The position numbers and the translations under genes were made by a program. Source: an uncultured Steroidobacteraceae bacterium (GTDB taxonomy: Bacteria > Chloroflexota > Limnocylindria > QHBO01). Taken from it: a stretch of 32,529 nt of DNA. The stretch is from assembly GCA_964452225.1 (NCBI GenBank), contig CAYVLM010000001.1, positions 11,810 through 44,338 on the forward strand. The letters run 5' to 3'. Under the pieces are notes generated by a model. The model did no database searches and was not told where the DNA came from. It saw only the letters and a program-made list of their open reading frames with translations. How positions within the stretch are numbered: the stretch's first letter is position 1; the number at the start of each line of letters is the position of its first letter. This document shows positions 1 to 32,529 of the stretch, in pieces.

Positions 1-82
1 TCTGACCGGATCGGCCCGTGGGCCACCGGCAACGGCCGAGGCGAGACGGCCCCAGGTGGTTCCCGTACGGAGGGACAGTTAC

Positions 83-1270: not shown

Positions 1271-1302
1271 GATCGGCTCGATCTGCTGGACCCTGAAACG
1301 CT

Positions 1303-1335
1303 CGAGGGCGGGCCGGCCACTCCGGTCCGCCCTCG
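1303..1335 (+). terminator. Intercistronic GC-rich stem-loop (partial terminator or attenuator) between the binding-protein gene and the ATPase gene
   Basis: CGAGGGCGGGCCGG / CCGGTCCGCCCTCG arms pair over about 13 bp with one G-T wobble around a 5-nt loop. The hairpin lies 33 nt after the stop at 1270. This is the usual way ABC operons over-express the binding protein. Confidence 0.45.
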
Positions 1336-1374
1336 TTGACTGTTCGGCGACCTGACCACCCGACCGAGGCGAGG

Positions 1375-2949
1375 ATGACTGAACAGGCCCAAGGGGCGAT
1401 TCGGCCCCCGGCCCTCGAGATGCGCGGCGTGACGAAGCGCTATCCGGGCGTGGTCGCGAACGACCACATCGACCTGGAGGTGCGGCCAGGCGAGATCCAC
1501 GCGCTGCTCGGCGAGAACGGCGCCGGCAAGACGACCCTGATGAACGTCCTGTTCGGGCTCGCCACGCCCGACGAGGGGGAGATCAGGCTCGACGGCGAGC
1601 CGGTCCAGATCGCGAGCCCCGCGGACGCGATCGCTCATGGCATCAACATGGTGCACCAGCACTTCATGCTCGTCCCGGTGCTGAGCGTCACGGACAACAT
1701 CCTGCTCGGGGACGAACCGATCGCGAACCGGATCTTCGTCAACCACCGGGCCGCCCGGGCGCGCATCACCGAGCTGGCGCAGTTCTTCGGCTTCCCTGTC
1801 GATCCGGACGTCAAGGTGGGGACGCTCTCGGTCGGCTGGCAGCAGCGCGTCGAGATCCTCAAGGCCCTGTACCGCAATGCGAGCATTTTGGTCCTCGACG
1901 AACCAACAGCCGTGCTCACGCCCCAGGAGACGCGCGAGATCTTCGGCGTGCTCCGGCGGCTGACGACCGAGGGCTACAGCATCATCTTCATCAGCCACAA
2001 GCTGTACGAGGTCCTCGAGATCGCCGACCGGATCACCGTCATCCGGCGCGGGCACGTCGTCGGCGAGCGGCTCCCAGCCGAAACGAACGAGGACGAGCTG
2101 GCGGAGATGATGGTGGGCCGCGAGGTGCAGCTGACCGTCGACCGCGGCGAATCGCATCCAGGGGCGCCGGTGCTCACCGTCGAGAATCTCCACGTCAGGG
2201 ACGACCGCGGCCACGAGGTGGTGCGCGGCGTCGACCTCGAGGTCCGGGCCGGCGAGATCCTGGGCATCGCCGGCGTGGCCGGCAACGGCCAGGACGAGAT
2301 GGTCGAGGCGCTCATCGGACTGCGGCGGCCGACCTCGGGGCGGGTGACGCTCGCCGGCACGGACGTGACTGGCCACACGCCCCGGCAGATGAACGAGGCG
2401 GGAGTCGCCTACGTGCCGGCCGACCGGCACCGCTTCGGACTCGTCCTGCCCTTCGAGGTCGCCGACAACGTGGTCCTGACCAGCTACTACCGCGCCCCGT
2501 TCGCCCGGGGGGTTGTGCGTGACGACGAGGCGATCCGCACGGCGGCCCGCGAGAGCATCGAGCGTTTCGACATTCGCACCCCGTCCGAGACGGTCGCCGC
2601 CGGGACGCTCTCGGGGGGCAACCAGCAGAAGGTGGTCGTCGCGCGCGAGTTCGACCGGGATCTCCGGCTCCTGGGGCTCGATCAGCCGACGCGCGGCCTC
2701 GACGTCGGCAGCATCGAGTTCATTCACCGGCAGACGATCGCGAAGCGGGACGCCGGGACGGCGATCCTCCTCGTCTCGGCCGAGCTCGACGAGGTGCTGG
2801 AGCTCTCGGATCGTGTTGCGGTCATGTTCCGCGGTCAGCTCGTCGCCGTGCTCGATGGACGAACGGCCGATCGCAACGAGGTCGGACTGCTGATGGCGAC
2901 CGGGCGTACCGATCGCTCCCAGGACGAGGCCGGCGAGGCCGCGTCGTGA
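1375..2949 (+). CDS. ABC transporter ATP-binding protein, duplicated-NBD sugar/nucleoside type
   Basis: Two nucleotide-binding domains. NBD1 has Walker A GENGAGKTT, signature LSVGWQQRVEI and Walker B ILVLDEPT. NBD2 has GVAGNGQDE, LSGGNQQKVVV and LLGLDQPTRGLD. ATG 1375 has GAGG 6 nt upstream; the longest ORF starts at TTG 1336. Confidence 0.95.
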   Translation: MTEQAQGAIRPPALEMRGVTKRYPGVVANDHIDLEVRPGEIHALLGENGAGKTTLMNVLFGLATPDEGEIRLDGEPVQIASPADAIAHGINMVHQHFMLVPVLSVTDNILLGDEPIANRIFVNHRAARARITELAQFFGFPVDPDVKVGTLSVGWQQRVEILKALYRNASILVLDEPTAVLTPQETREIFGVLRRLTTEGYSIIFISHKLYEVLEIADRITVIRRGHVVGERLPAETNEDELAEMMVGREVQLTVDRGESHPGAPVLTVENLHVRDDRGHEVVRGVDLEVRAGEILGIAGVAGNGQDEMVEALIGLRRPTSGRVTLAGTDVTGHTPRQMNEAGVAYVPADRHRFGLVLPFEVADNVVLTSYYRAPFARGVVRDDEAIRTAARESIERFDIRTPSETVAAGTLSGGNQQKVVVAREFDRDLRLLGLDQPTRGLDVGSIEFIHRQTIAKRDAGTAILLVSAELDEVLELSDRVAVMFRGQLVAVLDGRTADRNEVGLLMATGRTDRSQDEAGEAAS

Positions 2950-4112
2950 CGGGCCAGGGCGCAGGCGCCCGGCTGCGCAGCCTCGCGGGACGAGCCTGGT
3001 CCCTGACCGCACTGCCCCTGATCGCGATTCTGCTCGCACTCATCGTCGGCTCGGTCCTGATTCTCGCGTCGGAGCTGCTGATCACGAATCGGCCCTTCGA
3101 CCCGACGCTGCCGCTCACCGCCTACCGCTGGCTCTTCGAGGGGGCGCTCGGAACGCCCGACGCGATCGTCGAGAGCCTCGTCTTCACCACACCGCTGCTG
3201 CTCGCGGGCCTCGCGGTCGGCCTTGGGTTCCGGGCCGGCCTCTTCAACATCGGCGCGCTCGGGCAGTTCCTGATGGGTGCCCTGGTTGCGTGCTGGGTGG
3301 GGATCTGGCTGAAGGACGCGCCCGGCATCGTCGCCATCCCCGCCGCATTCCTCGGCGGCATGGTCGGCGGGGCGATCTTCGGTGCCATTCCCGGCTACCT
3401 GAAGGCGGTCTCGGGCGCGCACGAGGTCGTCACGACCATCATGCTCAACTACGTCGCGATCGCCGTGCTGGCAGCCATCGTCAGCGGCCCGCTGAAGGCA
3501 CCGGGCGCGCCGAACCCGATCACCGAGGAGATCGGAAACGCTGCCTTTCCGGTCCTGGTCGGCCGCGACGGCCACCTCGGGATCCTGATCGCGCTCGCGG
3601 CGGCGTTCGTCATCGCCTGGCTCCTGTACCGCACGACCCTTGGATTCGAGATCCGCACGGTCGGTGCCAACGCCGATGCAGCCCGCTACGCGGGCATGCG
3701 GCCCAAGCTCATCATGGTGCTGACCATGGGCATTTCCGGCCTCCTGGCCGGCATGGCCGGTGCGGGGCAGGTCCAGGGCATCAGCCACATGCTCACGGGA
3801 TCGTTCAGCACGACCGTCGGCTTCGACTCGATCGCGGTCGCCCTGCTCGGGCGCTCGAACCCCCTCGGGATCGTGGTGGCGTCACTCCTCTTCGGCGCCA
3901 TGCGTGCCGGCGCGGGCCTCATGCAGATCCGTGCGGGCATTCCGCGTGAGCTCGTGGACGTCGTCCAGGCAACCATCCTGCTCTTCCTGGTGGCCAGCCC
4001 CGTCCTGCAGCGGATCTTCCGCCTGCGGAGCGCCGCCGCCACCGCCCTGACGGGCACCGAGTCGCTCACCCAGGGTTATGGAGGGGCGGGCGAGGAGACG
4101 GTGAAGCCCTGA
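2946..4112 (+). CDS. ABC transporter permease (BMP/nucleoside-type importer)
   Basis: Polytopic hydrophobic protein. GTGA start/stop overlap with the ATPase gene at 2946-2949. High GC3 in this frame. Confidence 0.9.
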   Translation: MTGQGAGARLRSLAGRAWSLTALPLIAILLALIVGSVLILASELLITNRPFDPTLPLTAYRWLFEGALGTPDAIVESLVFTTPLLLAGLAVGLGFRAGLFNIGALGQFLMGALVACWVGIWLKDAPGIVAIPAAFLGGMVGGAIFGAIPGYLKAVSGAHEVVTTIMLNYVAIAVLAAIVSGPLKAPGAPNPITEEIGNAAFPVLVGRDGHLGILIALAAAFVIAWLLYRTTLGFEIRTVGANADAARYAGMRPKLIMVLTMGISGLLAGMAGAGQVQGISHMLTGSFSTTVGFDSIAVALLGRSNPLGIVVASLLFGAMRAGAGLMQIRAGIPRELVDVVQATILLFLVASPVLQRIFRLRSAAATALTGTESLTQGYGGAGEETVKP

Positions 4113-5188
4113 TGGACCAGCTGATCAACGCGCTCTACGCGATCCCCGTGCTCGGCGTCCTCTTCCAGCTCGTCGGCTACCTGGTCGACACGATCGTGAA
4201 CTTCGGGCCGATCATCCTGCAGGGTGCGACGCCGCTCGCGCTCGGCGCGCTTTGCGGCGTGCTGTGCGAGCGATCGGGCGTGGTCAATATCGCCATCGAG
4301 GGCACCATGCTGGCCAGCGCGTTCACGGGCTGGGTGGTGGGCATCGCGCTGGCCCCGGTCTTTGGCGGCTCGCCCAGCTGGTTCTTCGGCGTCACCCCGG
4401 CGATCTTCCTCGCCCTCCTCGCGGCGCTGGCAGTCGCGGCGCTGATCAGCCTGCTGCACGCGTGGCTGTCGATCACCGTTCGGGCCGACCAGATCATCAG
4501 TGGCACCATCATCAACATCGCCGCGTTCGGGGTCACCGGCTACCTGAACACGCTGCTCGCCCAGAGCTCGCCGACGAGCGCCGGCAGCTTCGCCCAGTTC
4601 AACCCGCCCCACGCATTGCTCGATGTCCCTGTGGTTGGCTGGCTCTTCAACGCCTTTCTCAGCCAGGGACCAATCACGATGTCGGTGATCGTCATCGTGA
4701 TCGCGCTCCAGATCCTCCTGTTCCGGTCGCGATGGGGCCTTCGGACGCGGGCGGTCGGCGAGCACCCCAAGGCGGCCGAGACCGTGGGCATCAGCGTGAT
4801 CGCCCTTCGCTACCGCAACGTCATCCTCGGCGGGCTCTTCGCCGGGCTCGCCGGCGCGTTCCTGAGCATGGAGGCGACGAACTCGTTCCAGGCCGGGATG
4901 ACCGCCGGTCGCGGGTTCATCGCCCTGGCCGCGCTCATCATCGGGCGCTGGACGCCGCTCGGCGCGTGGGGTGCCGCCCTGCTCTTCGCAACGTCGCAGG
5001 TGCTCGGCCAGGCCATCGTCATCGCCCCGCCCACCGGGACGCTCGGGAACGTGCTCACCGCGATCCCTGCCCAGTTCTACGACGCGCTCCCCTACGTGGT
5101 GACCATCGTGGTGCTCGCCGGCGTGGTCGGCCGGAGCATTCCGCCGGCCGCGGACGGACAGCCATACGAACGCGAGTCGGCCACCTGA
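4112..5188 (+). CDS. ABC transporter permease (second subunit)
   Basis: Polytopic hydrophobic protein. TGATG overlap with the upstream permease (stop 4110-4112, ATG 4112). Confidence 0.9.
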   Translation: MDQLINALYAIPVLGVLFQLVGYLVDTIVNFGPIILQGATPLALGALCGVLCERSGVVNIAIEGTMLASAFTGWVVGIALAPVFGGSPSWFFGVTPAIFLALLAALAVAALISLLHAWLSITVRADQIISGTIINIAAFGVTGYLNTLLAQSSPTSAGSFAQFNPPHALLDVPVVGWLFNAFLSQGPITMSVIVIVIALQILLFRSRWGLRTRAVGEHPKAAETVGISVIALRYRNVILGGLFAGLAGAFLSMEATNSFQAGMTAGRGFIALAALIIGRWTPLGAWGAALLFATSQVLGQAIVIAPPTGTLGNVLTAIPAQFYDALPYVVTIVVLAGVVGRSIPPAADGQPYERESAT

Positions 5189-8180: not shown

Positions 8181-9248
8181 CTAGACCTCGATCTCGACGG
8201 GCATCGCGGCACGGCCGTCACTGCCGTCGGGCGGCCTCCTGCGGCGCTCCACCGGCGGTGCCGGATCGAGGAAGCTGGCGCGGTCCGCCGTCTCCAGCGC
8301 GACCTGCACCTCCTCCATCGAGAGCATCTCGTTGCGCAGCACGAGCGAGATCTCGTCGCGGAGGTGCGAGCGAAGCATCTCGGGACCATCGGTCGAGAGG
8401 GCGAACGAGACCCGGTGCTCCTCGAGGGCCCGGAGGATGCGGCGCATCTCTGCCAGGTCGCGCACCACCCGCGTGTTCAGATTCGACGAAGGGCAGACCT
8501 CGAGCACCACCCCGCGCTCACGGAGGAGCCCCATCACCATCGGATCGTCCGCGGAACGGACCCCGTGCCCGATCCGCTCCGGGTTGAGCGCCTCCACGGC
8601 CTCGCGTACCTCGTCGGCCCCGCCGGTTTCGCCGGCGTGCACCGTCACGCCCAGGCCTGCCCGGCGACAGGCGTCGAAGATCTCCCGGTATTCGGCGAAG
8701 CGGAAGTCCGGCACCACGGGCCCGGCCATGTCCACGGCGATCACGCCCCGGTCGCGCCAGGCGATCGCCTTGGTGGCGATGATCTCGTTCAGCTCGCGGC
8801 TGAAGGCGCGGTCGAGGCAGAAGATGAGGCCCGCACGCACCTGGGGATACTCCAGCACGGCGCGGTCCATGCCGCGCACGGCCGCGGCGATGATGTGATC
8901 CAGGTCCTGTTCGCCGCCGCGGTTGCGCTTCATCGGGTTGAAGCGCAGCTCGAGGCGGGTGATGTTGTTCTTCCGGTAGGCCCCGCCGATCACCTCGTAG
9001 ACGCTGCGCTCCACGGCAATGGGGCTGGACTGGATCAGCTCGGTCCAGTGGAAGAGGTCCAGGTAGGCCTGGAAGGAGCGCCGGCGGCGGGCCGTGATCA
9101 GGTCACGAAAGGCCCAGTAGTCCTTGGTCGGAAGGCGGATCCCCTGGGCGTGGGCGATCCCCCACATGATCGCCGGCGTCACCGCGGCGCCAAGGTGGAC
9201 GTGCAGCTCCGTGAGAGGGGTCCGGCGGTCAAGCCTCGGTCGCGGCAT
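8181..9248 (-). CDS. add: Adenosine deaminase family protein
   Basis: LTELHVHLGAAV (HxH metal site), TVHAGETGG and ALSTDGPEM are the hallmark adenosine/AMP deaminase motifs in the correct order. Confidence 0.9.
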   Translation of the reverse strand: MPRPRLDRRTPLTELHVHLGAAVTPAIMWGIAHAQGIRLPTKDYWAFRDLITARRRRSFQAYLDLFHWTELIQSSPIAVERSVYEVIGGAYRKNNITRLELRFNPMKRNRGGEQDLDHIIAAAVRGMDRAVLEYPQVRAGLIFCLDRAFSRELNEIIATKAIAWRDRGVIAVDMAGPVVPDFRFAEYREIFDACRRAGLGVTVHAGETGGADEVREAVEALNPERIGHGVRSADDPMVMGLLRERGVVLEVCPSSNLNTRVVRDLAEMRRILRALEEHRVSFALSTDGPEMLRSHLRDEISLVLRNEMLSMEEVQVALETADRASFLDPAPPVERRRRPPDGSDGRAAMPVEIEV

Positions 9249-9348
9249 GCTCCTCGTGTCGTGCGTTTCGCCGGAGTGTAGCAGCGGTGCGGCGCCCGAC
9301 GGGCGACGGGCCGAGGCCCACGGCCCCTACGCTACAATCGCCTCCGGC

Positions 9349-10785: not shown

Positions 10786-11199
10786 GTGCGAACCATCGAG
10801 GTCACGGTCGCGAGCGGCGAGCGGCCCTCGATCGTCGACCTGACTGATGCCTGCGCCGGCTTCCTGGCCGACGTCGCGGGTGGCGGGGACGGGATCCTCA
10901 ACGTCTTCGTGCCCCACGCCACGGCCGGGGTGGTCGTGATGGAGCTCGGTGCGGGCAGTGACGCCGACCTGCTCGAGACGCTGTCCACCCTGCTGCCGCG
11001 CGACGACCGCTGGCGGCATCGCCACGGCCCGCGCGGCCACGGCGCCGACCACGTGCTGCCCATCATGGCCCCACCCTCGATCAGCCTGCCCGTGATCGGT
11101 GGGCGGCTGGCGCTGGGCACCTGGCAGTCGGTCGCGCTCGTGGACACCAACACCGAGAAGCGCTCTCGCAGCGTCCGGCTGTCGTTTCTCCCTGGCTGA
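10786..11199 (+). CDS. yjbQ: YjbQ/UPF0047 family protein (secondary thiamine-phosphate synthase-like)
   Basis: The length (137 aa) and the motifs DLT...[21 protein letters not shown] and [10 protein letters not shown] are characteristic of UPF0047. GTG start at 10786. Confidence 0.9.
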
Positions 11200-11202
11200 C
11201 CG

Positions 11203-13284
11203 TCAGGAACCGGCGAGCTGGGCGACCTGGGCGCGAACGGTTGCCGGGTCGTTGGTCGGCGCCTCGCACGCATAGCCACGGCAGACGTAGGCGGTCGCCC
11301 GCCCCCCGCGCGGCCGCTTCCCGGCGAGCACCGGCCACTCGTCCGGGGTGTCCCATGTGTCGCCGGCGGTCGGAGCGCTCACCACCACGAGATCCGGCGC
11401 ATACGGCCCCAGCGCCGCGGATCGCAGGGCCTCGGCGCCCGGATCGTTGGGGCTCGCCCCCGCGATGACCGCGTCAATGGGGTCGCTGAGCGCCCGGTCA
11501 ACCGCGCACAGCATCCGGCCGAAGAGCGTCGGCTGCCGCTCCAGGGCAGGTCCGACGGCGCGCAGGATGCTGCGCGCCCGCCGATCGTGGCTTGGATCGG
11601 CGGTGACGAGGGCCAGTCGCTGCAGCAGATCGGCCGCGACGGCGTTCCCGGAGGGCGTGGCGGCATCGACGAGTGAGCGCGGACGCGCGACGAGGACGTC
11701 GTGCTCCGCCGACGTGTCCCAGAAGGTCCCGGAGCCGGCGTCCCAGAAGTCGGCCACGGCCCGCTCCACGAGCGATTGCGCGAGCAGCAGGTCGTCGACC
11801 CGTCCGCTCGCGGCATGGGCGGCCAGCAGCCCGTCTGCCAGGCAGACGTAGTCCTCCAGGAAGCCTGGCGTGTGGCCGCGCCCGTCCCGGGCCGTGCGCC
11901 AGACTCCGCCGTCGGCGCGCACGAGGACGGTGCGGATGAAGGCGACCAGCCGATCGGCGGCTGCCAGCAGCTCCGGGCGTCCGAGCGCGGCGCCGGCCTC
12001 GGCGAGCGAGCGCAGCAGCAGGCCGTTCCAGGCGGCGAGCTGCTTGCCGTCGCGTGCGGGCCGGACACGCTCCTCGCGCGCCCGGGCCAGCGAGGCACGC
12101 GCGCGCGCGAGCAGCGCCGCCGGCGGCAGCTCGGCTCCGGCGCTGAGGATCGAGCGTCCCTCCCAGTTGCCCTGCGGGGTCACGCCCCAGTGGGCGGCCA
12201 CCGCATCCACCTCCCCGGCGCCAAGACCGTCCGCGGCCAGGACGGATCTGAGCTCTGCATCGGTCCAGGTGTAGAAGCGCCCCTCCTCGCCTTCCGAGTC
12301 CGCGTCGAGCGCGGAGGCATAGCCCCCGTCGGGGGTCTCCAGCTCGCGGACCACGAAGGCGAGGGTCGATTCGACCACCGCCCTGTACTGCTCCTGGCCG
12401 GTGGCACGCCAGGCCTCGAGGTAGGCATGCGCCAGGAGCGCGTTGTCGTAGAGCATCTTCTCGAAGTGCGGCACCAGCCAGCGCGCATCGGTGCTGTAGC
12501 GGGCAAAGCCACCGCCCACCTGGTCGCAGATGCCGCCGTGGGCCATGGCATCCAGGGTCGTGGTGACCATCGCCAGGGTTGCCGGATCGTGCGAGCGACG
12601 CCAGGCCCGCAGCAGGAACTCAAGCACCATCGGGGCCGGGAACTTGGGCGCCGGGCCGAACCCGCCGAATCGCGGGTCGAAGGTGGCGGCCAGGTGCCGG
12701 ACGGCACCCTCCACGATCGTGGTCCCCGGGTCATGGTCCCCCGGCGGCACCGCGAGCTGCTCCCGGAGGTGCGCGGACAGCCGGCTGCCCTGCGCCGTCA
12801 CCTCCCCCCGGCGGGTTCGGTACGCTTCTGCCACCGCGGAGAGCACCCGGCGAAACCCGGGCATCCCGTGCGCGTCCTCCGGTGGGAAGTAGGTCCCGCC
12901 GAAGAACGGGTCGAGATCGGGCGTCAGGAAGACCGACATCGGCCAGCCGCCGGAGCCGGTCATCGCCTGCACCGCGGCCATGTAGATCTCGTCGATGTCG
13001 GGGCGCTCCTCGCGATCGACCTTGATCGAGACGAACTCACGGTTGAGAAGCGCGGCCGTCTCGGCGTCGGTGAACGACTCGCGCTCCATGACGTGGCACC
13101 AGTGGCAGGCCGCGTACCCGACGGAGAGGAAGATCGGGCGGTCCTGTTTCCGGGCGTGCTCGAGCGCCTCGGGGCCCCACGGGTACCAGTCGACCGGGTT
13201 GTGCGCGTGTTGGAGGAGGTACGGGCTCGTCTCACCGGCGAGCCTGTTGGCGGGGATCTCCTCGGCCGGGCCTGGACTGCGCAT
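11203..13284 (-). CDS. Thioredoxin-domain protein of the DUF255/YyaL (SSP411-like) family
   Basis: N-terminal [18 protein letters not shown] and [17 protein letters not shown] (Trx-like CxxC), followed by a long alpha/alpha-barrel-like region typical of the family. Confidence 0.92.
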
Positions 13285-24527: not shown

Positions 24528-24638
24528 TCAGATGGATCGGACCGGCCGGTCCTGGATCATTGGGCGAGAGTCGGCTCCCGCACGAACCGCTGCCAGGTCC
24601 AACGTGACCAGCAGCAGCAGGATGACGAGCAGTGCCAT
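24528..24638 (-). CDS. Unannotated 36-aa hydrophobic peptide (leader peptide or small membrane protein candidate)
   Basis: ATG 24638 has GGAG 6 nt upstream. The product is MALLVILLLLVTLDLAAVRAGADSRPMIQDRPVRSI. GC3 is about 77%. It is the first ORF downstream of the near-consensus promoter. Confidence 0.3.
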   Translation of the reverse strand: MALLVILLLLVTLDLAAVRAGADSRPMIQDRPVRSI

Positions 24639-24640
24639 TG

Positions 24641-24662
24641 GTGACTCCGATGTGACTCCGAT
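24641..24662. repeat. Perfect 11-nt tandem duplication GTGACTCCGAT x2, duplicating the SD on the minus strand
   Basis: Positions 24641-24651 and 24652-24662 are identical. The minus strand reads ATCGGAGTCAC ATCGGAGTCAC CA ATG. Confidence 0.9.
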
Positions 24663-24670
24663 CCCGGTTG

Positions 24671-24757
24671 TGTAACTGGTTATGGCTTACTTGGTGGTTA
24701 CAGCGTGACTATAGCCGAGGGGCTGTAACTTGTCAACAGCCGTATACTGGTTACAGC
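24671..24757. promoter_or_regulatory. Phased operator-like repeats: two TGTAAC-N20-GTTACA units 53 bp apart
   Basis: TGTAAC is at 24671-76 and 24724-29. The 10-nt TGGTTACAGC is identical at 24695-24704 and 24748-24757. The inner arms GTTACAGC (24697-24704) and GCTGTAAC (24722-24729) also form an inverted repeat bracketing the minus-strand -10. Confidence 0.45.
24708..24736 (-). promoter_or_regulatory. Near-consensus sigma-70-type promoter TTGACA-N17-TATAGT reading toward the small ORFs and polX
   Basis: On the minus strand, TTGACA is at 24736-24731, the spacer is exactly 17 nt, and TATAGT is at 24713-24708. The region is locally AT-rich in a 70% GC genome. Confidence 0.55.
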
Positions 24758-24758
24758 A

Positions 24759-25400
24759 ATGACTGTGAGCGTCGATCCCACCCCCGAGCCCGAGCGGGCA
24801 TCCGACCTGTTCGTCGACTTCGCGAACACGCTCTCCTTCGATCACGGTGAGCCGATCGAGGGGCTGCCGGACACGGATGCGCTCCTCACCTGGCTCCGGC
24901 AGCACGAGCTGCTCAGCGACCGCGCACGGGCAGCAGAGGCGCATCGGCTGGCGCACAGTCCGGCGGAGGCCGCCCGACGCATGGAGCGCTTCCGTTACCT
25001 TCGCAGCCTCCTCCAGGAGATGGCAGGGCGCCTGGGGCGCGGCGATCTCCCGACGCGGGAGGAGCTCCGCCGGCTGAACCACATCCTCAAGCACGGCCTG
25101 CACTACCACCAGCTGGAGGCCGAGGCGGACGGCGCCCGCTACTCCCTGGCGCAGGTCGGGGACCGTCTTGACCAGGCACGCGCCGCCATCGCCGGCTCGT
25201 TCGCCTACTTCCTGGCGGAGGGCGATCCGTCACGGCTGCGGGTCTGCGCCAACGACGGCTGCCGGGAGGTCTTCGTCGACCGCTCCCCCACCGGGCGCCG
25301 GCGCTGGTGCACGATGCGTGTCTGCGGCAACCAGGCGAAGGTGGCCCGCCACCGGGCCCGGCAGCGTTCGCATCTTCCGGTGGAGGCCGGGGCCGACTAG
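24759..25400 (+). CDS. CGNR zinc-finger (ABATE/DUF1470, COG5516) putative transcriptional regulator
   Basis: C-terminal LRVCANDGCREVFVDRSPTGRRRWCTMRVCGNQAKVARHRARQR (zf-CGNR) after an ABATE-like N-domain (FVDFANT...). There is no SD. TATACT ends 10 nt upstream of the ATG, which suggests a near-leaderless transcript. Confidence 0.88.
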   Translation: MTVSVDPTPEPERASDLFVDFANTLSFDHGEPIEGLPDTDALLTWLRQHELLSDRARAAEAHRLAHSPAEAARRMERFRYLRSLLQEMAGRLGRGDLPTREELRRLNHILKHGLHYHQLEAEADGARYSLAQVGDRLDQARAAIAGSFAYFLAEGDPSRLRVCANDGCREVFVDRSPTGRRRWCTMRVCGNQAKVARHRARQRSHLPVEAGAD

Positions 25401-25628
25401 AATATCCGCGGCTCGACGGCATCCGCCATCGGCCGATCAAGCCCGCAACGAGGCCGCAGCACAGCACCCGTGGACGCCGGTTCCTGTAGACCCGAACCAC
25501 GCGCGCGCTCCGGACGCCCGGATCGCAGCAGGATGAGCGCCTAGCGACGACGCTGACGCGACCGTCCTCGCGATCCCGACCACCCGCGCGCGCCACCGCA
25601 GCAGACGCGACAGCGAGGTGGTCGTTCC

Positions 25629-26897
25629 ATGCTCTTCCTGAGCCAGCTCATCGGCAAGCCGGTCCTGGACCGGGTCGGCGAGCCCTTCGGCAGGGTCCGC
25701 GACCTGATCGTGGCCCTCGGTGAGCAGTACCCGCCGGTCACGGGCCTCGTGGTGCGCGTCACGGGCGGACGGGAGATCTTCCTGCCCTGGAGCGACGTTG
25801 AGGAGATCGACCGGGCCGGCGCCCGACTCCACACCTCGAGCATCGACATCACCAGCTTTCGCCAGCGCCCGAACGAGATCCGCCTCTGGCTCGACCTGCA
25901 GGACAAGCAGATCGTGGACGTCGAGGGGCGCAAGATCGTGCGCGTCAACGATATCCAGCTGGCGCCGGTCCGCGGGCGCCTGCGCCTGATGGCGGTCGAC
26001 GTCGGGCTGGCGGGCATCCTCCGCCGGCTGGGACTCTCTGGCCCCGGAGAGCGGCTGGCACGTGCCCTCCGGCTTCCGATCGAGAACTACATCGAGTGGG
26101 AGGACGTCGATCCGGTCGAGTCAAGCGTCAGCTCGCTGAAGCTGCGCGTGCCGCACCAGGCGCTCGCCACCCTGCACCCGGCCGACGTGGCGCACATCGT
26201 GGAGCAGCTGGCGCCGCGCGATCGGACCGGGATCCTGGCTTCCCTCGACGACGAGCGAGCAGCGGACGTCATCGAGGAGCTCTCAGCGGAGGACCAGGTG
26301 GACGTGCTCGAGGCGCTGCCGCCGGAGACTGCCGCCGACATCCTCGAGGAGATGGGTCCCGATGACGCCGCCGACCTGCTCGCCGACCTCTCCGAGGAGC
26401 GTCAGCGTGAGCTCCTGGGGCTCATGGAGCCGGACGAGGCCAACGAGGTCCGCGAGCTGCTCACCTACGGCGAGGAGACGGCCGGCGGCCTGATGACCAC
26501 CGACTTCATCACCGTGGGCCGGGACGAGACCGCGCAGCAGATCATCGACCGTCTTCGGGAGCTTCGCCCGGATGCGGACCAGGCCTACTACCTGTACGTC
26601 ACCGATGCCGACGGCATCCTGGTCGGCACCATCACCCTGCGCGGGCTGATCATCGCCGACCCAGAGACCTCCATCGCCGACTTCACGCGTCCCGATCCGA
26701 TCTCGGTCACGGTCGAGACCGATGCCGACGAGGTCGCCCGGGCCATCGCACGCTACAACCTCCTCGCGCTGCCGGTCGTCGACGACGAGGGCCATCTCCA
26801 GGGCGTGGTCACCGTTGACGACGCCATGGAGCGCGCGCTGGGCGAGGAGTGGCGCAAGCGCCTTCCCGAGCTCTTCGAACCGGTCGAGGAGAAGTGA
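25629..26897 (+). CDS. Soluble PRC-barrel + MgtE N-domain + CBS-pair protein (MgtE cytoplasmic sensor module without the membrane pore)
   Basis: N-terminal PRC-barrel-like LIGKPVLDRVGEPFGRVRDLIV. MgtE_N acidic helices (HPADVAHIVEQL...DVLEALPPETAADILEEMGPDDAADLLADL). Tandem CBS (GGLMTTDFITV..., LLALPVVDDEGHLQGVVTVDD). It ends without TM helices. GAGGTGG SD lies 7 nt before the ATG. Confidence 0.88.
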   Translation: MLFLSQLIGKPVLDRVGEPFGRVRDLIVALGEQYPPVTGLVVRVTGGREIFLPWSDVEEIDRAGARLHTSSIDITSFRQRPNEIRLWLDLQDKQIVDVEGRKIVRVNDIQLAPVRGRLRLMAVDVGLAGILRRLGLSGPGERLARALRLPIENYIEWEDVDPVESSVSSLKLRVPHQALATLHPADVAHIVEQLAPRDRTGILASLDDERAADVIEELSAEDQVDVLEALPPETAADILEEMGPDDAADLLADLSEERQRELLGLMEPDEANEVRELLTYGEETAGGLMTTDFITVGRDETAQQIIDRLRELRPDADQAYYLYVTDADGILVGTITLRGLIIADPETSIADFTRPDPISVTVETDADEVARAIARYNLLALPVVDDEGHLQGVVTVDDAMERALGEEWRKRLPELFEPVEEK

Positions 26898-28204
26898 CCC
26901 GGCTCGCCGTTCCTCGCCCGATCAGGCGCGCGCAGCGATCGCTCCGCGATCGGCTGCCGAACTTCCGCACCCATCGCACCGGCATCCTCGCCTTCCTCGG
27001 GGTCATGGGGCCGGGCCTCATCGCGGGCCTGGCCGGCAACGACGCCGGCGGGATCTTCACCTACTCGGTGCTCGGCGCCCAGACCGGGCTGCAGCTCCTG
27101 TGGATCCTGCCGATCACGACGGTGATGCTGATCATCGTCCTCGAGATGGCGGCGCGCATGGGCGCCGTCTCGGGACAGGGGCTCGGCGACCTGATCCGCG
27201 ACGACTTCGGCATCCGTTGGACCCTCTTCGCCATGGTCGTCCTGCTCATCGCCAACGGCTCGAACATCGCCGCCGAGTTCGCCGGCGCGGCGGCAGCGCT
27301 CGAGATCTTCGCCGTTCCCCGCTGGATCGTGGTTCCCGTCGTGGCGGCCGGCATCTGGGCCCTCGTCGTGTTCGCGAGCTACCGGGTCGTCGAGCGTGTC
27401 TTCCTGTCGGTCGCGGTCGTCTTCATCGCCTATGTGGTCAGCGCCTTCGTGGCCGGCCCGGACTGGGGACGGGTCGGGAGCGCACTGGTGACGCCCCAGG
27501 TCAGCTTCGAGCCGAGCACGCTGCTGCTGATGGTGGCCACCGTGGGGACCACCGTGACCCCGTACATGTTCTTCTACCTGCAGTCATCGGTCGCAGACAA
27601 GGGGCTCGGCCCGGAGGAGCTCAACCTCGAGCGCGCCGACGCGATCCTGGGCGGGATCTGGACCAACGTGATCGCCCTGTTCATCGTGGTCGTCACCGCC
27701 GTCACCCTCTTCGGCCGCGGAATCGAGCTGCGCGACGCCGCCGATGCCGCCCAGGCGCTGGCCCCGGTCGCCGGCCGTTTCGCGGAGGCGCTCTTCGCCT
27801 TCGGCCTCTTCGGAGCTTCGGTGCTCGCAGCGACGGTGATGCCGCTGACCACCAGCTACACGGTGTGCGAGTCGTTCGGCTGGGAGTCGGGGGTGTCGCG
27901 CCGCTTCCGGGAGGCGCCGGTATTCATGGGCCTGTACACCGCGCTGATCGTGATGGGCGCGGCGGTGGTCCTCATACCCGGGATGCCCCTCACGGGGCTG
28001 ATCATCGTCAGCCAGAACCTCAACGGCATCCTGCTGCCGGTAATCCTGGTCTTCATGCTGCGCTTGGTGAACAATCCGAGGATCATGGGATCGCATACGA
28101 ACCCGACCTGGCTGAACGTCCTGGGCTGGGGACTGACCGGGCTGGTGAGCCTGCTCACCCTGGTCCTGGTGGGAAGCGCCGTGATCGGCGCCGTGACCGC
28201 CTGA
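26894..28204 (+). CDS. NRAMP/SLC11-family transporter with a non-canonical metal site (NRMT-like, probable Mg2+-type)
   Basis: GPGLIAGLAGNDAGGIFTYSVLGAQTG (TM1) and VGTTVTPYMFFYLQSS (TM6) align to the NRAMP DPGN and MPH motifs but read DAGG and TPY. About 11 TM helices. GTG 26894 overlaps the upstream stop (GTGA); an alternative GTG is at 26849. Confidence 0.9.
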   Translation: MTRLAVPRPIRRAQRSLRDRLPNFRTHRTGILAFLGVMGPGLIAGLAGNDAGGIFTYSVLGAQTGLQLLWILPITTVMLIIVLEMAARMGAVSGQGLGDLIRDDFGIRWTLFAMVVLLIANGSNIAAEFAGAAAALEIFAVPRWIVVPVVAAGIWALVVFASYRVVERVFLSVAVVFIAYVVSAFVAGPDWGRVGSALVTPQVSFEPSTLLLMVATVGTTVTPYMFFYLQSSVADKGLGPEELNLERADAILGGIWTNVIALFIVVVTAVTLFGRGIELRDAADAAQALAPVAGRFAEALFAFGLFGASVLAATVMPLTTSYTVCESFGWESGVSRRFREAPVFMGLYTALIVMGAAVVLIPGMPLTGLIIVSQNLNGILLPVILVFMLRLVNNPRIMGSHTNPTWLNVLGWGLTGLVSLLTLVLVGSAVIGAVTA

Positions 28205-29238
28205 TGAAGCCGCGCCCCCCGCTGGTCGGGCCGCTGAGCGGGGTCCGGTCGCTGCCCATGCGGCTGCGCCGGCCGGTCAAGACCGCGAGCGGGGAGGGCG
28301 GCGAGGAACCAACCCTCGAGCCGCACCCCGAGGTGGTGGAGGCGCCGGGGCTGCGCTGGATCGACGTCGAGCGCCCACGCCTCGCAGATCGGCTCTGGCT
28401 CGCGGAGAACTTCGGCTTCCACGAGCTCGACCTGGAAGACGTCGCCAGCCACAACCAGCGTCCCAAGCTGGACGCCTACGACGAGTACATCTTCGTGGTC
28501 GTGCAGTTTCCGAGCTTCGACCCCGAGACCAGCCGTCTCGACGCCGTCGAGCTCGACGTGTTCATGGGTCCGGACTACCTGATCACCCTCCCCAACGAGC
28601 CCATTCCGCCGCTGCGCGCCCTCTTCGAGCGGGCGCAGGGCCGCGAGGAGGTCCGTGCCGAGGTCATGGCCAACGGCTCCGGTCGCCTCCTGTACGAGAT
28701 TCTCGACCGATGCGTGGACGCCTCCTTCCCGATGCTGTCGCAGATCGGTCGCAAGCTGCGCCGCATCGAGAACGACATCTTCGAGGGCCGAAGCGGGGAG
28801 GTCGTCCGCGACATCAGCAACGCCAAGCAGGAGATCATCAACTTCCGGGCCGTGATCCGCCCGCAGCGGGTGGTCTTCCACGATCTCGAGCGCGCGAAGC
28901 AGCGCTACCTCCCGGAGGACCTCGACGTCTACTTCGACGACCTGACCGATGCCTCCGAGCGCATCTGGGACATGCTCGAGAACTTCAAGGAGATCGTCGA
29001 GGGGCTCGAGGACACCAACGAGTCGGTGCTCTCCCATCGGCTCAACGACGTGCTGCGCATCCTCACCGCGGTCACGGTGATCCTCCTGCCCCTCACCCTG
29101 GTGACCGGCTTCTTCGGCATGAACGTGGGATTCCCCGGCGAGCCGCGGGCGCCCGCCTACTTCTGGGGCATCGTGATCGCCATGGCGATCATGCTCGTCG
29201 CCCTGGTGGTCTTCTTCCGGAGGCGCGGCTGGCTGTAG
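28204..29238 (+). CDS. corA: CorA-family Mg2+/Co2+ transporter
   Basis: Two C-terminal TM helices with the signature FFGMNVGFPG (GMN). The cytoplasmic domain is typical (LRWIDVERP..., FHELDLEDV). TGATG overlap with the NRAMP gene stop. Confidence 0.9.
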   Translation: MKPRPPLVGPLSGVRSLPMRLRRPVKTASGEGGEEPTLEPHPEVVEAPGLRWIDVERPRLADRLWLAENFGFHELDLEDVASHNQRPKLDAYDEYIFVVVQFPSFDPETSRLDAVELDVFMGPDYLITLPNEPIPPLRALFERAQGREEVRAEVMANGSGRLLYEILDRCVDASFPMLSQIGRKLRRIENDIFEGRSGEVVRDISNAKQEIINFRAVIRPQRVVFHDLERAKQRYLPEDLDVYFDDLTDASERIWDMLENFKEIVEGLEDTNESVLSHRLNDVLRILTAVTVILLPLTLVTGFFGMNVGFPGEPRAPAYFWGIVIAMAIMLVALVVFFRRRGWL

Positions 29239-29373
29239 TCCGACCGACCGTCGGTCCAAGAATACGCACGCGGACAGCCACCCCCGGGCCGATGGTCACG
29301 ATCGACCGATCTGGATGGCCCGTTCGCCGCATGGGGTCTTGACAAGCCGGCAGTTGCGTGGGAGCCTCAGGCT

Positions 29374-29406
29374 GCACATATGTGCGTCATGATGCTCAAT
29401 TGTGCG
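29374..29406. promoter_or_regulatory. Perfect 12-nt palindrome GCACATATGTGC plus a direct repeat of its 3' half (TGTGCG) 20 nt downstream: candidate SorC/DeoR operator
   Basis: The palindrome is at 29374-29385. TGTGCG occurs at 29381-86 and 29401-06. The site is in an AT-richer patch just upstream of the regulator gene, and a TTGACA lies at 29339-44. Confidence 0.4.
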
Positions 29407-29437
29407 AGCTGAACGGAGACAGGACGGCTTGCTGACG

Positions 29438-30409
29438 ATGACGGGCCGGCGGACCAGCAGCAGCGACGTGCGCCAGATGGTGCGCATCACGCAGCTCTAC
29501 TACCGCATGCACCTCAGCCAGGAGCAGATCGGCGAGCGCCTCGGCCTCAGCCGCTTCCAGGTCGGCCGGCTCCTGGCCCGGGCGCTGCGCGAGGACATCG
29601 TCAAGATCGAGATCCGGCACCCTGTCGCCCGCCTGATCGAGCTCGAGGATGCCCTCGCCGAGCGGTTCGGTCTCGGGACAGCCGTCGTCGTGGACGTCCC
29701 GACGTCGACCTCCGAGAAGGCGGCCGAGCAGCTCGCCCGCGAGGCCGTCGCGGGCGCCGCGGTGCGCTTCCTCGCCGACCTCCACCCGAACGGCTCGATC
29801 GGAGTCTCCTGGGGGCGGACGATGCTCGAGCTGGCGCGCCAGCTCGAATCTGGCTGGACGAGCGCCACCGAGGTCGTCCAGCTGAACGGCGCTACCTCCC
29901 TTTCGGCCGAGCCGACGCGTGCCAACGAGATCGCGGAGCGGTTCGGCGCGACGACCGGGGCCGCGATCCGGATGCTCGCCGCGCCGGCGATCGTGGGCAG
30001 CCCGGCGCTGCGGCGAGCACTCGAGGATGACCCCTCGGTCGGAGCGACGATCGAGGCTGCCCGAGCCACCGCGACCGCGATCTTCTCCCTCGGCGTCCTG
30101 ACCCCGCAGAGCGTCCTCGTCGGCTCGGGCTTTCTCACCCCCGGGGACGTGGCGGATCTCCGGGCGGCGGGCGCGGTGGGCGACATCATCGGCCGCTTCC
30201 TGCGCGTGGACGGCGCCACCGCCTCGCTGGAGCTGGACCAGCGGACCGTGGGGCTTCCCCTTGCTGACCTGGCCGCCAAGCCGATCTCGATCGGCGTGGC
30301 GGCGGGCGCCGGCCGCGGGCCGATCTCGCTGGGCGCGCTGCGCGGCCGCTACCGCAACGTCCTGATCGCCGACGCCGACACGGCGCAGTGGGTGATCGAC
30401 CATGGCTGA
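29438..30409 (+). CDS. SorC/DeoR(Bsu)-family sugar-phosphate-binding transcriptional regulator
   Basis: N-terminal HTH (MVRITQLYYRMHLSQEQIGERLGLSRFQVGRLLARALREDIVKIEI) followed by a sugar-phosphate-binding domain (GVSWGRTM..., QLNG). Start is uncertain (GTG 29402, ATG 29438, ATG 29477). Confidence 0.88.
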   Translation: MTGRRTSSSDVRQMVRITQLYYRMHLSQEQIGERLGLSRFQVGRLLARALREDIVKIEIRHPVARLIELEDALAERFGLGTAVVVDVPTSTSEKAAEQLAREAVAGAAVRFLADLHPNGSIGVSWGRTMLELARQLESGWTSATEVVQLNGATSLSAEPTRANEIAERFGATTGAAIRMLAAPAIVGSPALRRALEDDPSVGATIEAARATATAIFSLGVLTPQSVLVGSGFLTPGDVADLRAAGAVGDIIGRFLRVDGATASLELDQRTVGLPLADLAAKPISIGVAAGAGRGPISLGALRGRYRNVLIADADTAQWVIDHG

Positions 30410-31070
30410 GCGCATCGTGCCGAGTGAAGAGCTGGTCCGGCAGCTGGTGGAGCGCGCGCTGGACAGGCAGGTGGCCTCGGACACCCGCGAGGGGACGGGC
30501 GCCAGCGAGTTGACGGCGCCGGCTACCCCGGGAGACCCCCCAACTCCCATCGTGCCGACCGCGGCCGCGGCCCCCGGGGCGGCGGCCGGCGGCGGGCGAA
30601 CCGTCGCGATCGGCGCCGACCACGGCGGCTACCTGCTCAAGCAGGCCCTCGCGAAGGCACTGTCCGACAAGGGCTACGCCGTGACCGACTGCGGCACCAC
30701 GTCCACCGAGACTGTCGATTACCCGGACTTCGCATATGCCGTTGCCCGACTCGTGGCGGACGGGGCGTGCACCTACGGGATCGTCGTCGACGGGGCGGGC
30801 ATCGGATCCGCGATCGTGGCCAACAAGGTGCCCGGCGTCCGGGCCGCCAATGCCCACGACACCTCCATGGCCCGTAACGCCCGCGAGCACAACTACGCCA
30901 ACGTGCTGACCCTCGGCGCTCGGATGATCGGCGAGGGGCTCGCGCTCGAGGTCGCGGACACCTTCCTTGCCATCCCCTGGGGCGCGGAGCGCCACGGCAA
31001 GCGGGTGGCCAAGATCACGGCCATCGAACGGCAATACCTCCGAACGCTACCTGAGGACCAGGACGCATGA
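30402..31070 (+). CDS. rpiB: Ribose-5-phosphate isomerase B (RpiB/LacAB family) with a roughly 65-aa N-terminal extension
   Basis: The core is [14 protein letters not shown]...DCG...VDYPDFA...[24 protein letters not shown]...[18 protein letters not shown]. The extension holds an amphipathic helix ([16 protein letters not shown]) plus a Pro/Ala/Gly linker. 8-nt overlap with the regulator gene. Confidence 0.92.
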
Positions 31071-31921
31071 CGATGCTGCCCGACACCCGGGACCTGCTGA
31101 TCGAGGCCGTCACCCGCGAGGTGCTGACGGCACTGTCATCCGGCGACACCTGCGGCCAGTGCGGCGGCTCGTGCGCCGCCCACTCGCCCGACAAGGTGCG
31201 CGAGGTCGTGACCAATGGCGCGTCGCGGATCGCCTACCGCGGTCGGGGCGGCGACGTCCCGCGTGACCTGGCCCCGTATATCGACCACACGCTGCTCAGG
31301 CCGGACGCCACCGCCGGGGACATCGACGAGCTGTGCGACGAGGCGATCGAGTACCGCTTCGCGGCCGTGTGCATCAACCCGACCTGGGTCCGCCGGGCGG
31401 CGGACCGGGTCCGGGGCACCGGCGTGGCGGTCGCCTCGGTGATCGGCTTTCCGTTCGGCGCCAGCACCCCCGAGGTCAAGGCGCTCGAGGCTCGCCGAGC
31501 GATCCGCGACGGCGCGCGTGAGATCGACATGGTGATCAACATCGGCGCCCTCAAGAGCGGCATGCACGACCAGGTCCGGGAGGACATCGAGCGGGTCTCC
31601 GATGCCTGCCACGAGTCGGGTGCATTGAACAAGGTGATCATCGAGGCCGCGCTGCTCTCCGACGAGGAGAAGGTGATCGCCTGCCACCTGGCCAAGGAGG
31701 CCAGGGCCGACTTCGTCAAGACCTCGACCGGCTACGCGTCGGGCGGCGCGACCGTGTACGACGTCGCCCTGATGCGCGAAACGGTCGGCCCGCGAATGGG
31801 CGTCAAGGCGGCCGGGGGGATCCGGACGACCGAGGACGCGCAGGACATGATCGCCGCCGGCGCGACCCGGATCGGGGCCTCGGCGGGGATCAGGATCGTG
31901 AGTGGAGAGGGGCGCGCATGA
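31067..31921 (+). CDS. deoC: Deoxyribose-phosphate aldolase (DERA) with a roughly 65-aa N-terminal extension
   Basis: [38 protein letters not shown] (Schiff-base Lys) and GVKAAGGIR. The extension holds the helix [16 protein letters not shown] and the motif [15 protein letters not shown] overlap with rpiB. Confidence 0.93.
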
Positions 31922-32529
31922 GCAATATTGACCTCCGGGCGTACGTGTTCCTGGACAGCCTCCAGGCGCAGTACGCCGCGTTTCTGGGCACGGTCGCGCA
32001 GGGGTTCCTGCCGCTGGCCGGCGACGCCTCGCTGTCGGTCGAGGTCTCGCCCGGCATCGAGATCAACCGGCTGACCGACATCGCCCTCAAGTCCACCTCG
32101 GTCAAGCCCGGGATGCAGATCATCGAGCGCTACTACGGCATGCTCGAGGTCCACTCGCCGTCCCAGGCGGAGGTGCGCGCCGCGGGCGCGGCGATCCTGC
32201 GCGAGATCGGGCTCGAGGAGACGGACCGCATCAAGCCACGCGTCTTGTCAAGCCAGATCATCCGCCGGATCGACGACCATCAGGCGCAGCTGGTCAACCG
32301 CACCCGCCACGGCCAGATGCTCATCCCGGGCCAGACGCTCTACGTGCTGGAGCTTGAGCCCGCTGCCTACGCGGCGCTGGCGGCCAACGAGGCCGAGAAG
32401 GCCGCCCACATCAACATCCTCGAGGTCCGCGCGTTCGGTTCCATGGGCCGCGTCTATCTCGGGGGCGAGGAACGAGACATCGACGTCGGCTGGCGAGCGG
32501 CTCTGGCGGCGATCGAGGGGCTGGAGGGC
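31918..32529 (+). CDS. CsoS1D-like tandem-domain BMC-T microcompartment shell protein (3' end outside the window)
   Basis: I translated this by hand; it is absent from the ORF track because no stop falls in the window. The product is [60 protein letters not shown]...[42 protein letters not shown]. This closely parallels the CsoS1D pattern as I remember it ([13 protein letters not shown]...GFLP.PGD....EVSPG....TDIALK...E.EPA.Y...AANEAEKA). ATGA overlap with deoC. Confidence 0.85.

Follow-up and report, generated by a model that had tools for sequence, protein, structure and literature searches.

We analyzed a stretch of 32,529 nucleotides (nt) from contig CAYVLM010000001.1 (assembly GCA_964452225.1, forward-strand positions 11,810 to 44,338; the whole stretch is referred to here as the window), which ends in genes resembling the start of a sugar-phosphate utilization (SPU) bacterial microcompartment (BMC) operon. 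The window has a G+C content of about 70% throughout, and from 29.4 kb to its end there are four open reading frames (ORFs) on the plus strand with the high third-position G+C seen in real genes. The features of this segment are as follows.

29338..29344, plus strand: CTTGACA, a tentative -35-like box in front of the operon
29373..29406, no strand: candidate operator of two 14-bp palindromes, TGCACATATGTGCG (29373-29386) and TGCTCAATTGTGCG (29393-29406)
29438..30409, plus strand: SorC-family, DeoR-subclass transcriptional regulator (Pfam Sugar-bind plus an N-terminal helix-turn-helix, HTH)
30402..31070, plus strand: RpiB-like protein (PF02502)
31067..31921, plus strand: deoxyribose-phosphate aldolase (DERA; TIGR00126, Pfam DeoC)
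31151-31186, plus strand: Cys motif C29-x2-C32-x3-C36-x3-S40 in the N-terminal extension of DERA, conserved in relatives
31918..32529, plus strand: CcmP-like BMC-T(dp) shell protein, cut by the window end (NCBIfam CcmP)

A first-pass annotation, made from the sequence alone, had described the regulator, RpiB, DERA and shell genes as overlapping by 4-8 nt, and this is what is read from the sequence: the regulator/RpiB junction, ATGGCTGA, is an 8-nt overlap, and the RpiB/DERA and DERA/shell junctions are each ATGA, a 4-nt overlap. The four genes form an overlapping, translationally coupled arrangement. The same annotation had the window ending after the first shell gene; the cut actually falls inside it, five codons before the stop, with 204 of 209 codons present (full length as given by a 2.8-kb contig that is 99.8% identical to the window).

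An exact-protein look-up of DERA, aimed at the continuation of the window, returned contigs of 1.3-2.8 kb only, and exact 61-mer scans found nothing in genome contigs and only the same 2.8-kb contig among metagenome contigs. As a proxy for the continuation we used L090, a 14.8-kb JGI metagenome contig that is 98.1% identical to, and colinear with, window positions 24595-32529 over 7,936 bp with one gap. The genes upstream of the operon (a zf-CGNR regulator, an MgtE_N/CBS protein, Nramp and CorA) are common to both. The T(dp) gene in L090 is followed, in this order, by:

BMC-H, 102 aa (single-domain, PF00936)
BMC-P, 95 aa (PF03319)
acylating aldehyde dehydrogenase (AldDH), 487 aa (PRK15398, 618 bits; cut-off 403)
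BMC-T(s), 203 aa (tandem-domain, PduT-like, no cysteine)
BMC-P, 101 aa (PF03319)
BMC-P, 127 aa, L090 positions 11059-11442 (PF03319), the last gene of the operon

An unrelated LiaF_C-like gene comes next and marks the end of the operon. The gene list of the L090 operon contains no PduL, Pta, alcohol dehydrogenase or PduS; phosphotransacylase (PTAC, PF06130) and PduS-like genes are likewise absent from the Pfam annotations of L090 and of the related loci L005, L006, L007 and L008.

A scan of one genome per GTDB species yielded 502 confirmed relatives of the T(dp) protein, of which the best 80 loci were analyzed. The T(dp) proteins of these loci are 77-96% identical to that of the window (87-96% in many Chloroflexota metagenome-assembled genomes), and most of the loci carry Chloroflexota-type labels (Chloroflexi, Chloroflexia, “Candidatus Limnocylindrales”), the rest being mostly Acidimicrobiia. 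Gene order is strongly conserved: T(dp)-H-P-AldDH-T(s)-P-P is found in 68 of the 69 loci with at least 4.3 kb of downstream sequence, and RpiB-DERA-T(dp) in 70 of 70. A SorC gene lies directly upstream in 52 of 70 and is absent there in the other 18, which are mostly labeled Acidimicrobiia or other Actinomycetota. The BMC-H, BMC-P and acylating AldDH genes that the first-pass annotation expected downstream are thus present in L090 and in nearly all relatives, while the PduL-type phosphotransacylase and alcohol dehydrogenase that it also expected are missing from L090, which is typical for the SPU3 subtype.

Because only a single, truncated shell gene is visible in the window itself, the genes could also be read as an ordinary deo-type cluster for sugar catabolism in the cytosol, with a lone or satellite shell gene as a chance neighbor and no functional compartment. 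We regard this as very improbable, given that the DERA and shell genes overlap by 4 nt, that DERA and RpiB carry extensions not covered by solved non-compartment homologs, and that in the 98%-identical contig, as in 68 of 69 relatives, a complete set of shell genes comes next.

The third BMC-P of L090 has a basic C-terminal tail rich in Pro, Ala and Arg, ending ...KAPAARRPRRSRGHGVQGAQ; tails of at least 20 aa occur on this protein in about 30 of 66 related loci, with a net charge of at least +4 in 22 of the 66. Such tails recall the K/R tail by which a pentamer of the Hodarchaeales SPU-type compartments binds nucleic acid. The second and third BMC-P of locus L005 (13744-14469) are fused into one 241-aa ORF with two EutN domains, and the T(s) protein of that locus has a long N-terminal extension and a C-terminal end PRPRRRRP.

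Despite a weak match to the Pfam BMC model (19 bits, below the cut-off), the ORF at 31918 is a genuine BMC-T(dp) gene, in keeping with the shell-protein identity first proposed for it. The truncated protein scores 337 bits against the NCBIfam CcmP model, the full 209-aa protein of L090 (7325-7954) scores 342 bits (cut-off 340), and the best solved structures are those of CcmP (4HT5/5LSR, E 2e-86). Describing it as “CsoS1D-like” gave the right protein class but not the precise clade, as among solved structures CcmP scores 292 bits, the HO shell T proteins 230-245 and CsoS1D 179. Residues E70/R71 (32125-32130) align with the Glu-Arg pair at positions 69/70 of CcmP 5LSR, a pair that we take to be the pore-gating residues of CcmP and CsoS1D. 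E70/R71 is therefore a putative gating pair, and the protein should, by homology, assemble as a stacked double trimer whose pore is gated.

A full-length protein that exceeds the CcmP equivalog cut-off (342 vs. 340 bits) and has cyanobacterial CcmP as its best solved relative might point to a carboxysome, or a carboxysome-like CO2-fixing compartment, as the source of the shell gene. However, RuBisCO, CcmM/N and carbonic anhydrase are absent from the surroundings of the locus in the Pfam annotations of L090 and L005-L008, the enzymes of the operon include DERA and an acylating AldDH instead, and Sutter et al. 2021 record CcmP-like T(dp) proteins in SPU2, SPU3, HO and MIC3 metabolosomes. We give this alternative next to no credence; a carboxysome reading of the CcmP model match is ruled out by genomic context. 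Automated annotation may nevertheless label such T(dp) proteins as carboxysome components in non-autotrophs.

The SPU class was named by Axen et al. 2014 and grew, in the work of Sutter et al. 2021 (Nat Commun), to seven subtypes with over 280 loci from 26 phyla. In the tree file of the latter study, T(dp) A0A1F8S633 (209 aa) of Chloroflexi RBG_16_72_14 is labeled “bmcType=SPU3 (main), ccmPlike”; this genome is L015 among our loci, and its T(dp) is 95% identical to that of the window. SPU3 as described there has AldDH, PF01791 (DERA) and PF02502 (ribose-5-phosphate isomerase, RPI) as its enzymes, encapsulation peptides (EPs) at the N-termini of AldDH and PF01791, and a shell of one BMC-H, a BMC-P triplet, a CcmP-like T(dp) and a T(s) that lacks both a PduS partner and a pore cysteine. 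L090 fits this description gene for gene. The window's probable membership in SPU3 rests on the published label of the 95%-identical homolog and on this gene-for-gene match.

Taken with the gene identities and the L090 continuation, the SPU3 label bears out the first-pass reading of the segment as the 5' end of an SPU-type microcompartment locus. We consider it very likely that the window contains the promoter-operator, the regulator and the first three of nine structural genes of an SPU3 operon, whose predicted role is the breakdown of DNA-derived deoxyribose-5-phosphate (dR5P). The locus is an ordinary, widespread instance of a catalogued, very common locus type and not a new kind of system. 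The combination of DERA, RpiB, a DeoR-type regulator and shell proteins had been offered as the definition of the class. What defines it is DERA together with AldDH and shell proteins, and the regulator plays no part: in the SPU6 model locus the regulator is of the GntR type, and a neighboring SorC gene is lacking in 18 of 70 related loci.

The statement that the class had never been characterized experimentally is outdated, as SPU6 enzymes were assayed in 2024 and SPU-type shells were assembled in 2025. According to Dwyer, Sutter and Kerfeld (Commun Biol 2024; PMC11585597), who studied the SPU6 locus of Chloroflexi bacterium GWB2_54_36, a metagenome-assembled genome and the source of the only assayed SPU enzymes in the papers found, the SPU6 DERA without its N-terminal extension of ~70 aa is soluble, dimeric and active on dR5P. 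DERA and RPI of this locus form a complex. The authors also describe N-terminal extensions on all SPU DERAs and RPIs, often missed by gene callers, and state that SPU loci without PTAC typically have a T(dp). Du et al. (2025 bioRxiv preprint; PMC12747264) assembled Hodarchaeales SPU-type shells in vitro and in E. coli and imaged them; in these shells cargo recruitment is EP-dependent, and a K/R-rich tail on one pentamer binds nucleic acid. The SPU literature that we found includes no study of an SPU3 locus or of an SPU compartment in its native host.

The window's DERA matches Pfam DeoC (77 bits) and TIGR00126 deoC (283 bits vs. a cut-off of 117, residues 68-278), with a best E-value of 2.5e-77 against DERAs in the PDB. 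Residues D154, K218 and K247 are invariant in 66 homologs, and their spacing (64 + 29 residues) is that of D165, K229 and K258 in the assayed SPU6 enzyme. An N-terminal extension of ~66 aa (31067-31264) lies outside the region matching solved DERAs and is conserved in 76 relatives. It consists of an amphipathic helix, a variable linker, the Cys motif and the segment KVRxVVxxGAxRI (KVREVV..GASRI in the window). In an AlphaFold2 (AF2) model built from a 66-sequence alignment, the confidence score (pLDDT) averaged over 10-residue blocks is mostly 81-98 in the barrel and 46-64 in the extension, where a helix is predicted at residues 5-24 (pLDDT ~60).

Of the sequences that have a residue at the position in question, all 71 carry Cys32 and all 71 Cys36, while Cys29 is found in 69 of 71. 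At position 40, the 75 sequences divide into 50 with Cys, 22 with Ser and 3 with Thr, giving a consensus of C-x2-C-x3-C-A-A-x-(C/S/T). His occupies position 39 in 21 of the 25 sequences without Cys at position 40 (Fisher p ~1e-11, uncorrected for phylogeny); this apparent covariation is only suggestive, as CAAHC is also common (18 of 66). The Cys motif recurs in more distant representatives and, at an internal position, in an RpiB-DERA fusion. When the 68-aa extension was used as a phmmer query in an exhaustive search of 1.84 billion representatives, only 38 matches came back, all but two at protein N-termini. A DERA domain follows in nine of the ten sequences read, the tenth being a fragment of an RpiB-DERA fusion with an internal match, and nothing in the search suggests that the extension is a module that moves between enzymes. 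Cysteines in the DERA extension go unmentioned in the main text of Dwyer et al. (PMC11585597). It is possible, although on balance rather unlikely, that the Cys element is a metal site (structural Zn or Fe-S) controlling DERA packaging, the DERA-RpiB complex or redox sensing in SPU3; the AF2 model is too uncertain in this region to lend support to such a site or to show the geometry of the motif. If so, this site, together with the SorC subfamily and its operator, would give SPU3 its own regulatory and assembly logic.

A second DERA paralog, 42-46% identical, occurs 0.2-1.3 kb past the last BMC-P in L044, L049, L052, L054, L060 and L063, and upstream on the opposite strand in L059. In these several Limnocylindria loci the paralog beside the operon may be a cytosolic enzyme.

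The RpiB-like protein matches Pfam LacAB_rpiB (PF02502; 169 bits) over residues 68-205, preceded by a 67-aa N-terminal extension made up of a helix and a variable Pro/Ala-rich linker. The helix, PSxxEVRxLVxRxVD, is conserved in relatives. Scanned by themselves against Pfam, with E-values up to 10 allowed, the DERA and RpiB extensions matched no family. N-terminal extensions with amphipathic helices are found on RpiB and DERA, and also on AldDH in relatives; in the AldDH of L090 the N-terminal LSEREIAEIIERVHHRI is the most amphipathic 14-mer, no other part of the protein having so high a hydrophobic moment.

In an alignment with C. thermocellum RpiB (3HE8), the RpiB-like protein has Asp130 (30789-30791) at the position of the catalytic Cys ('ivicgtglg' vs. 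'ivvdgagig'), keeps His163, and has Ala132 in place of Thr68, a residue that presumably has a role in RpiB. It is probably not an active ribose-5-phosphate (R5P) isomerase. Asp130 is the same change as the Cys66 to Asp substitution reported for all SPU RPIs, and the SPU6 RPI has negligible R5P isomerase activity (PMC11585597).

It could be argued that the compartment handles another sugar phosphate, with the RpiB-like protein as an active isomerase that uses Asp130 as its base and provides or takes away substrates or products of DERA. RpiB and DERA are adjacent in 70 of 70 loci, RpiB-DERA fusions occur in SPU3, and His163 is retained, all of which shows the RpiB fold to be under strong selection. 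An activity on rare sugar phosphates is left possible by PMC11585597 itself. We nevertheless find this proposal distinctly improbable. Besides the negligible activity of the SPU6 enzyme and the additional loss of Thr68, there is no route from R5P or ribulose-5-phosphate to DERA without transketolase, the catalytic triad of DERA is preserved, and a member of the class has been shown to act on dR5P.

The regulator ends at 30409 and has three candidate starts, GTG 29402, TTG 29429 and ATG 29438; since the second palindrome overlaps GTG 29402, the real start would be TTG 29429 or ATG 29438. The protein has a Pfam Sugar-bind domain (PF04198; 172 bits) and an N-terminal HTH, and its best solved relative is B. 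subtilis DeoR (8R7Y, E 5e-39). Its score against the NCBIfam DeoR equivalog NF053881 is 218.5 bits, below the cut-off of 420. Asn150 (29885-29887, counted from ATG 29438) aligns with the lysine of the DeoR sequence QLKGG (QLNGA in the window), presumably Lys141, the Schiff-base and dR5P-binding residue of DeoR, and Asn occupies this position in all 51 regulator homologs. With Asn in place of the dR5P-binding lysine, the effector chemistry of the regulator must differ from that of DeoR. Orthology with B. subtilis DeoR, considered as evidence for dR5P as the inducer, is rejected on the sub-cut-off score and the invariant Asn.

The two palindromes, TGCACATATGTGCG and TGCTCAATTGTGCG, are 20 bp apart, start to start, and are the sole matches to TGCWCAWWTGWGCA (up to two mismatches) in the 32.5-kb window, where 0.25 would be expected by chance. 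All 51 related SorC genes are preceded, within 200 nt, by at least one such palindrome, and 17 of them by two spaced 20-21 bp apart, while the remainder of the same loci (976 kb) contains one match. The pattern was derived from these same sequences, which makes the enrichment somewhat circular, but the contrast is still extreme. Binding of SorC-family tetramers to two half-operators has been solved for CggR and for DeoR, which binds dR5P covalently (PMC11229326), and the two-palindrome layout would fit this mode of binding. The palindromes are likely the operator of a distinct SorC subfamily. In the 51 regions preceding SorC, the 8-mers with the strongest enrichment include CCTTGACA or CTTGACAC, and from this we only infer that CTTGACA serves as a -35-like box upstream of the operon; consensus scans of 29100-29600 found no full sigma-70 promoter and no terminator. 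In the SPU literature, as far as it was accessible, we found no description of an adjacent SorC-type regulator with a double palindrome, of the RpiB N-terminal helix in unfused SPU3 loci, or of the Cys motif in the DERA extension.

These features suggest how the operon might work. A tetramer of the SorC-type repressor would sit on the two palindromes and be released by a sugar phosphate, for which dR5P is plausible, and the nine structural genes would then be made in fixed proportions. The shell would have facets of BMC-H, with inserted T(s) and stacked T(dp) trimers, and the three pentamer paralogs at its vertices. DERA, AldDH and the RpiB-like protein would be aggregated or recruited via their N-terminal helices and enclosed, the RpiB-like protein serving chiefly as a scaffold or non-catalytic partner for DERA. 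After entering the shell, dR5P would be cleaved by DERA to glyceraldehyde-3-phosphate, which would leave, and acetaldehyde, which would be retained; AldDH would convert the trapped acetaldehyde to acetyl-CoA and NADH. Since PTAC, alcohol dehydrogenase and PduS are all missing from the operon, the shell would have to let CoA, acetyl-CoA and NAD(H) through, the gated pore of the CcmP-like T(dp) being the most plausible route.

Several points weigh against this interpretation. The window stops within the first shell gene; what follows is taken from a 98%-identical contig and not read directly. The operon offers no PTAC, alcohol dehydrogenase or PduS for cofactor recycling. The enzymology is carried over from an SPU6 locus whose AldDH and T(dp) are of different clades. 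The regulator is, judging from its score (218 vs. 420 bits) and the Asn for lysine, not a B. subtilis DeoR equivalog. Lastly, the AF2 model has low confidence in the DERA extension, and the amphipathicity of the DERA helix is moderate (hydrophobic moment 24th of 271 windows).

The surroundings of the operon, in the window and in relatives, include further genes. A nucleoside phosphorylase (PNP/UDP family) is found within 10 kb of the operon in 21 of 86 related loci, and a cytidine deaminase in 15 of 86, with L004, L018, L020 and L032 among the loci that have such neighbors; these neighbors support a link to deoxynucleoside catabolism. Elsewhere in the window there are:

2-5188: PnrA/Bmp-type ABC transporter (binding protein, double ATPase, permease)
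8184-9326, minus strand: adenosine deaminase
25557-29238: metal-ion transport cluster directly upstream of the operon (PRC/MgtE_N/CBS protein, Nramp, CorA)

The PnrA-type transporter and the adenosine deaminase, 20-29 kb upstream, could feed nucleosides to the pathway, or they may be unrelated to it. The ORFs of the metal-ion transport cluster overlap or abut, the PRC/MgtE_N/CBS protein lacks the MgtE membrane domain, and the cluster is kept in L090; it appears unrelated to the microcompartment.

Judging from sequence relatives, the host probably belongs to the Limnocylindria, a class of the Chloroflexota, but even the nearest named contigs, of which there are two, share only ~85% DNA identity with the window. 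One of these two, L013 (DATHRO010000023.1; 85%), is labeled Candidatus Deferrimicrobiaceae; its relatives are all Chloroflexota, and the label is probably a binning error.

SPU compartments are among the most widespread microcompartment classes and presumably allow bacteria in soil, sediment and freshwater to use DNA debris as food. The window and the 80 related loci represent one highly conserved nine-gene version that is widespread in Limnocylindria-type Chloroflexota and in Acidimicrobiia. The operator motif offers a handle for induction or reporter experiments, and the assembly of the enzyme core could be probed through the Cys motif and the RpiB that looks inactive. The picture of what SPU compartments are is unchanged by these findings.

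Among known systems, the shell protein is closest to beta-carboxysome CcmP (4HT5, 5LSR), with which it aligns over its full length and shares the Glu-Arg pair; unlike CcmP, it is found in the context of a heterotrophic aldehyde-oxidizing metabolosome and not of a carboxysome. The regulator resembles B. subtilis DeoR, the SorC-family repressor of dra-nupC-pdp, in domain layout, in its association with a DERA-containing operon and in a two-half operator, but the window operator TGCWCAWWTGWGCA is unrelated to the ATTGAA...TTCAAT of DeoR. The SPU6 locus of GWB2_54_36 shares the order regulator-RPI-DERA, a DERA with an extension of ~70 aa and the D/K/K triad, and an RPI with Asp for Cys66 and an N-terminal helix plus linker. 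It differs in having a GntR/UTRA regulator, an AldDH of the EUT2/3 branch with a C-terminal EP, a T(dp) in the 'blue' clade that is not CcmP-like, and no T(s) of the SPU3 kind. The Hodarchaeales compartments share the DERA and AldDH core, the BMC-P triplet and a basic disordered tail on one pentamer, whereas their loci encode PTAC, citrate synthase, an MNdh/T(s) Fe-S pair and a flavoprotein-DERA fusion, and have no T(dp). Compared with the SPU3 loci of Sutter et al. 2021 and Dwyer et al. 2024, there is no difference in locus type.

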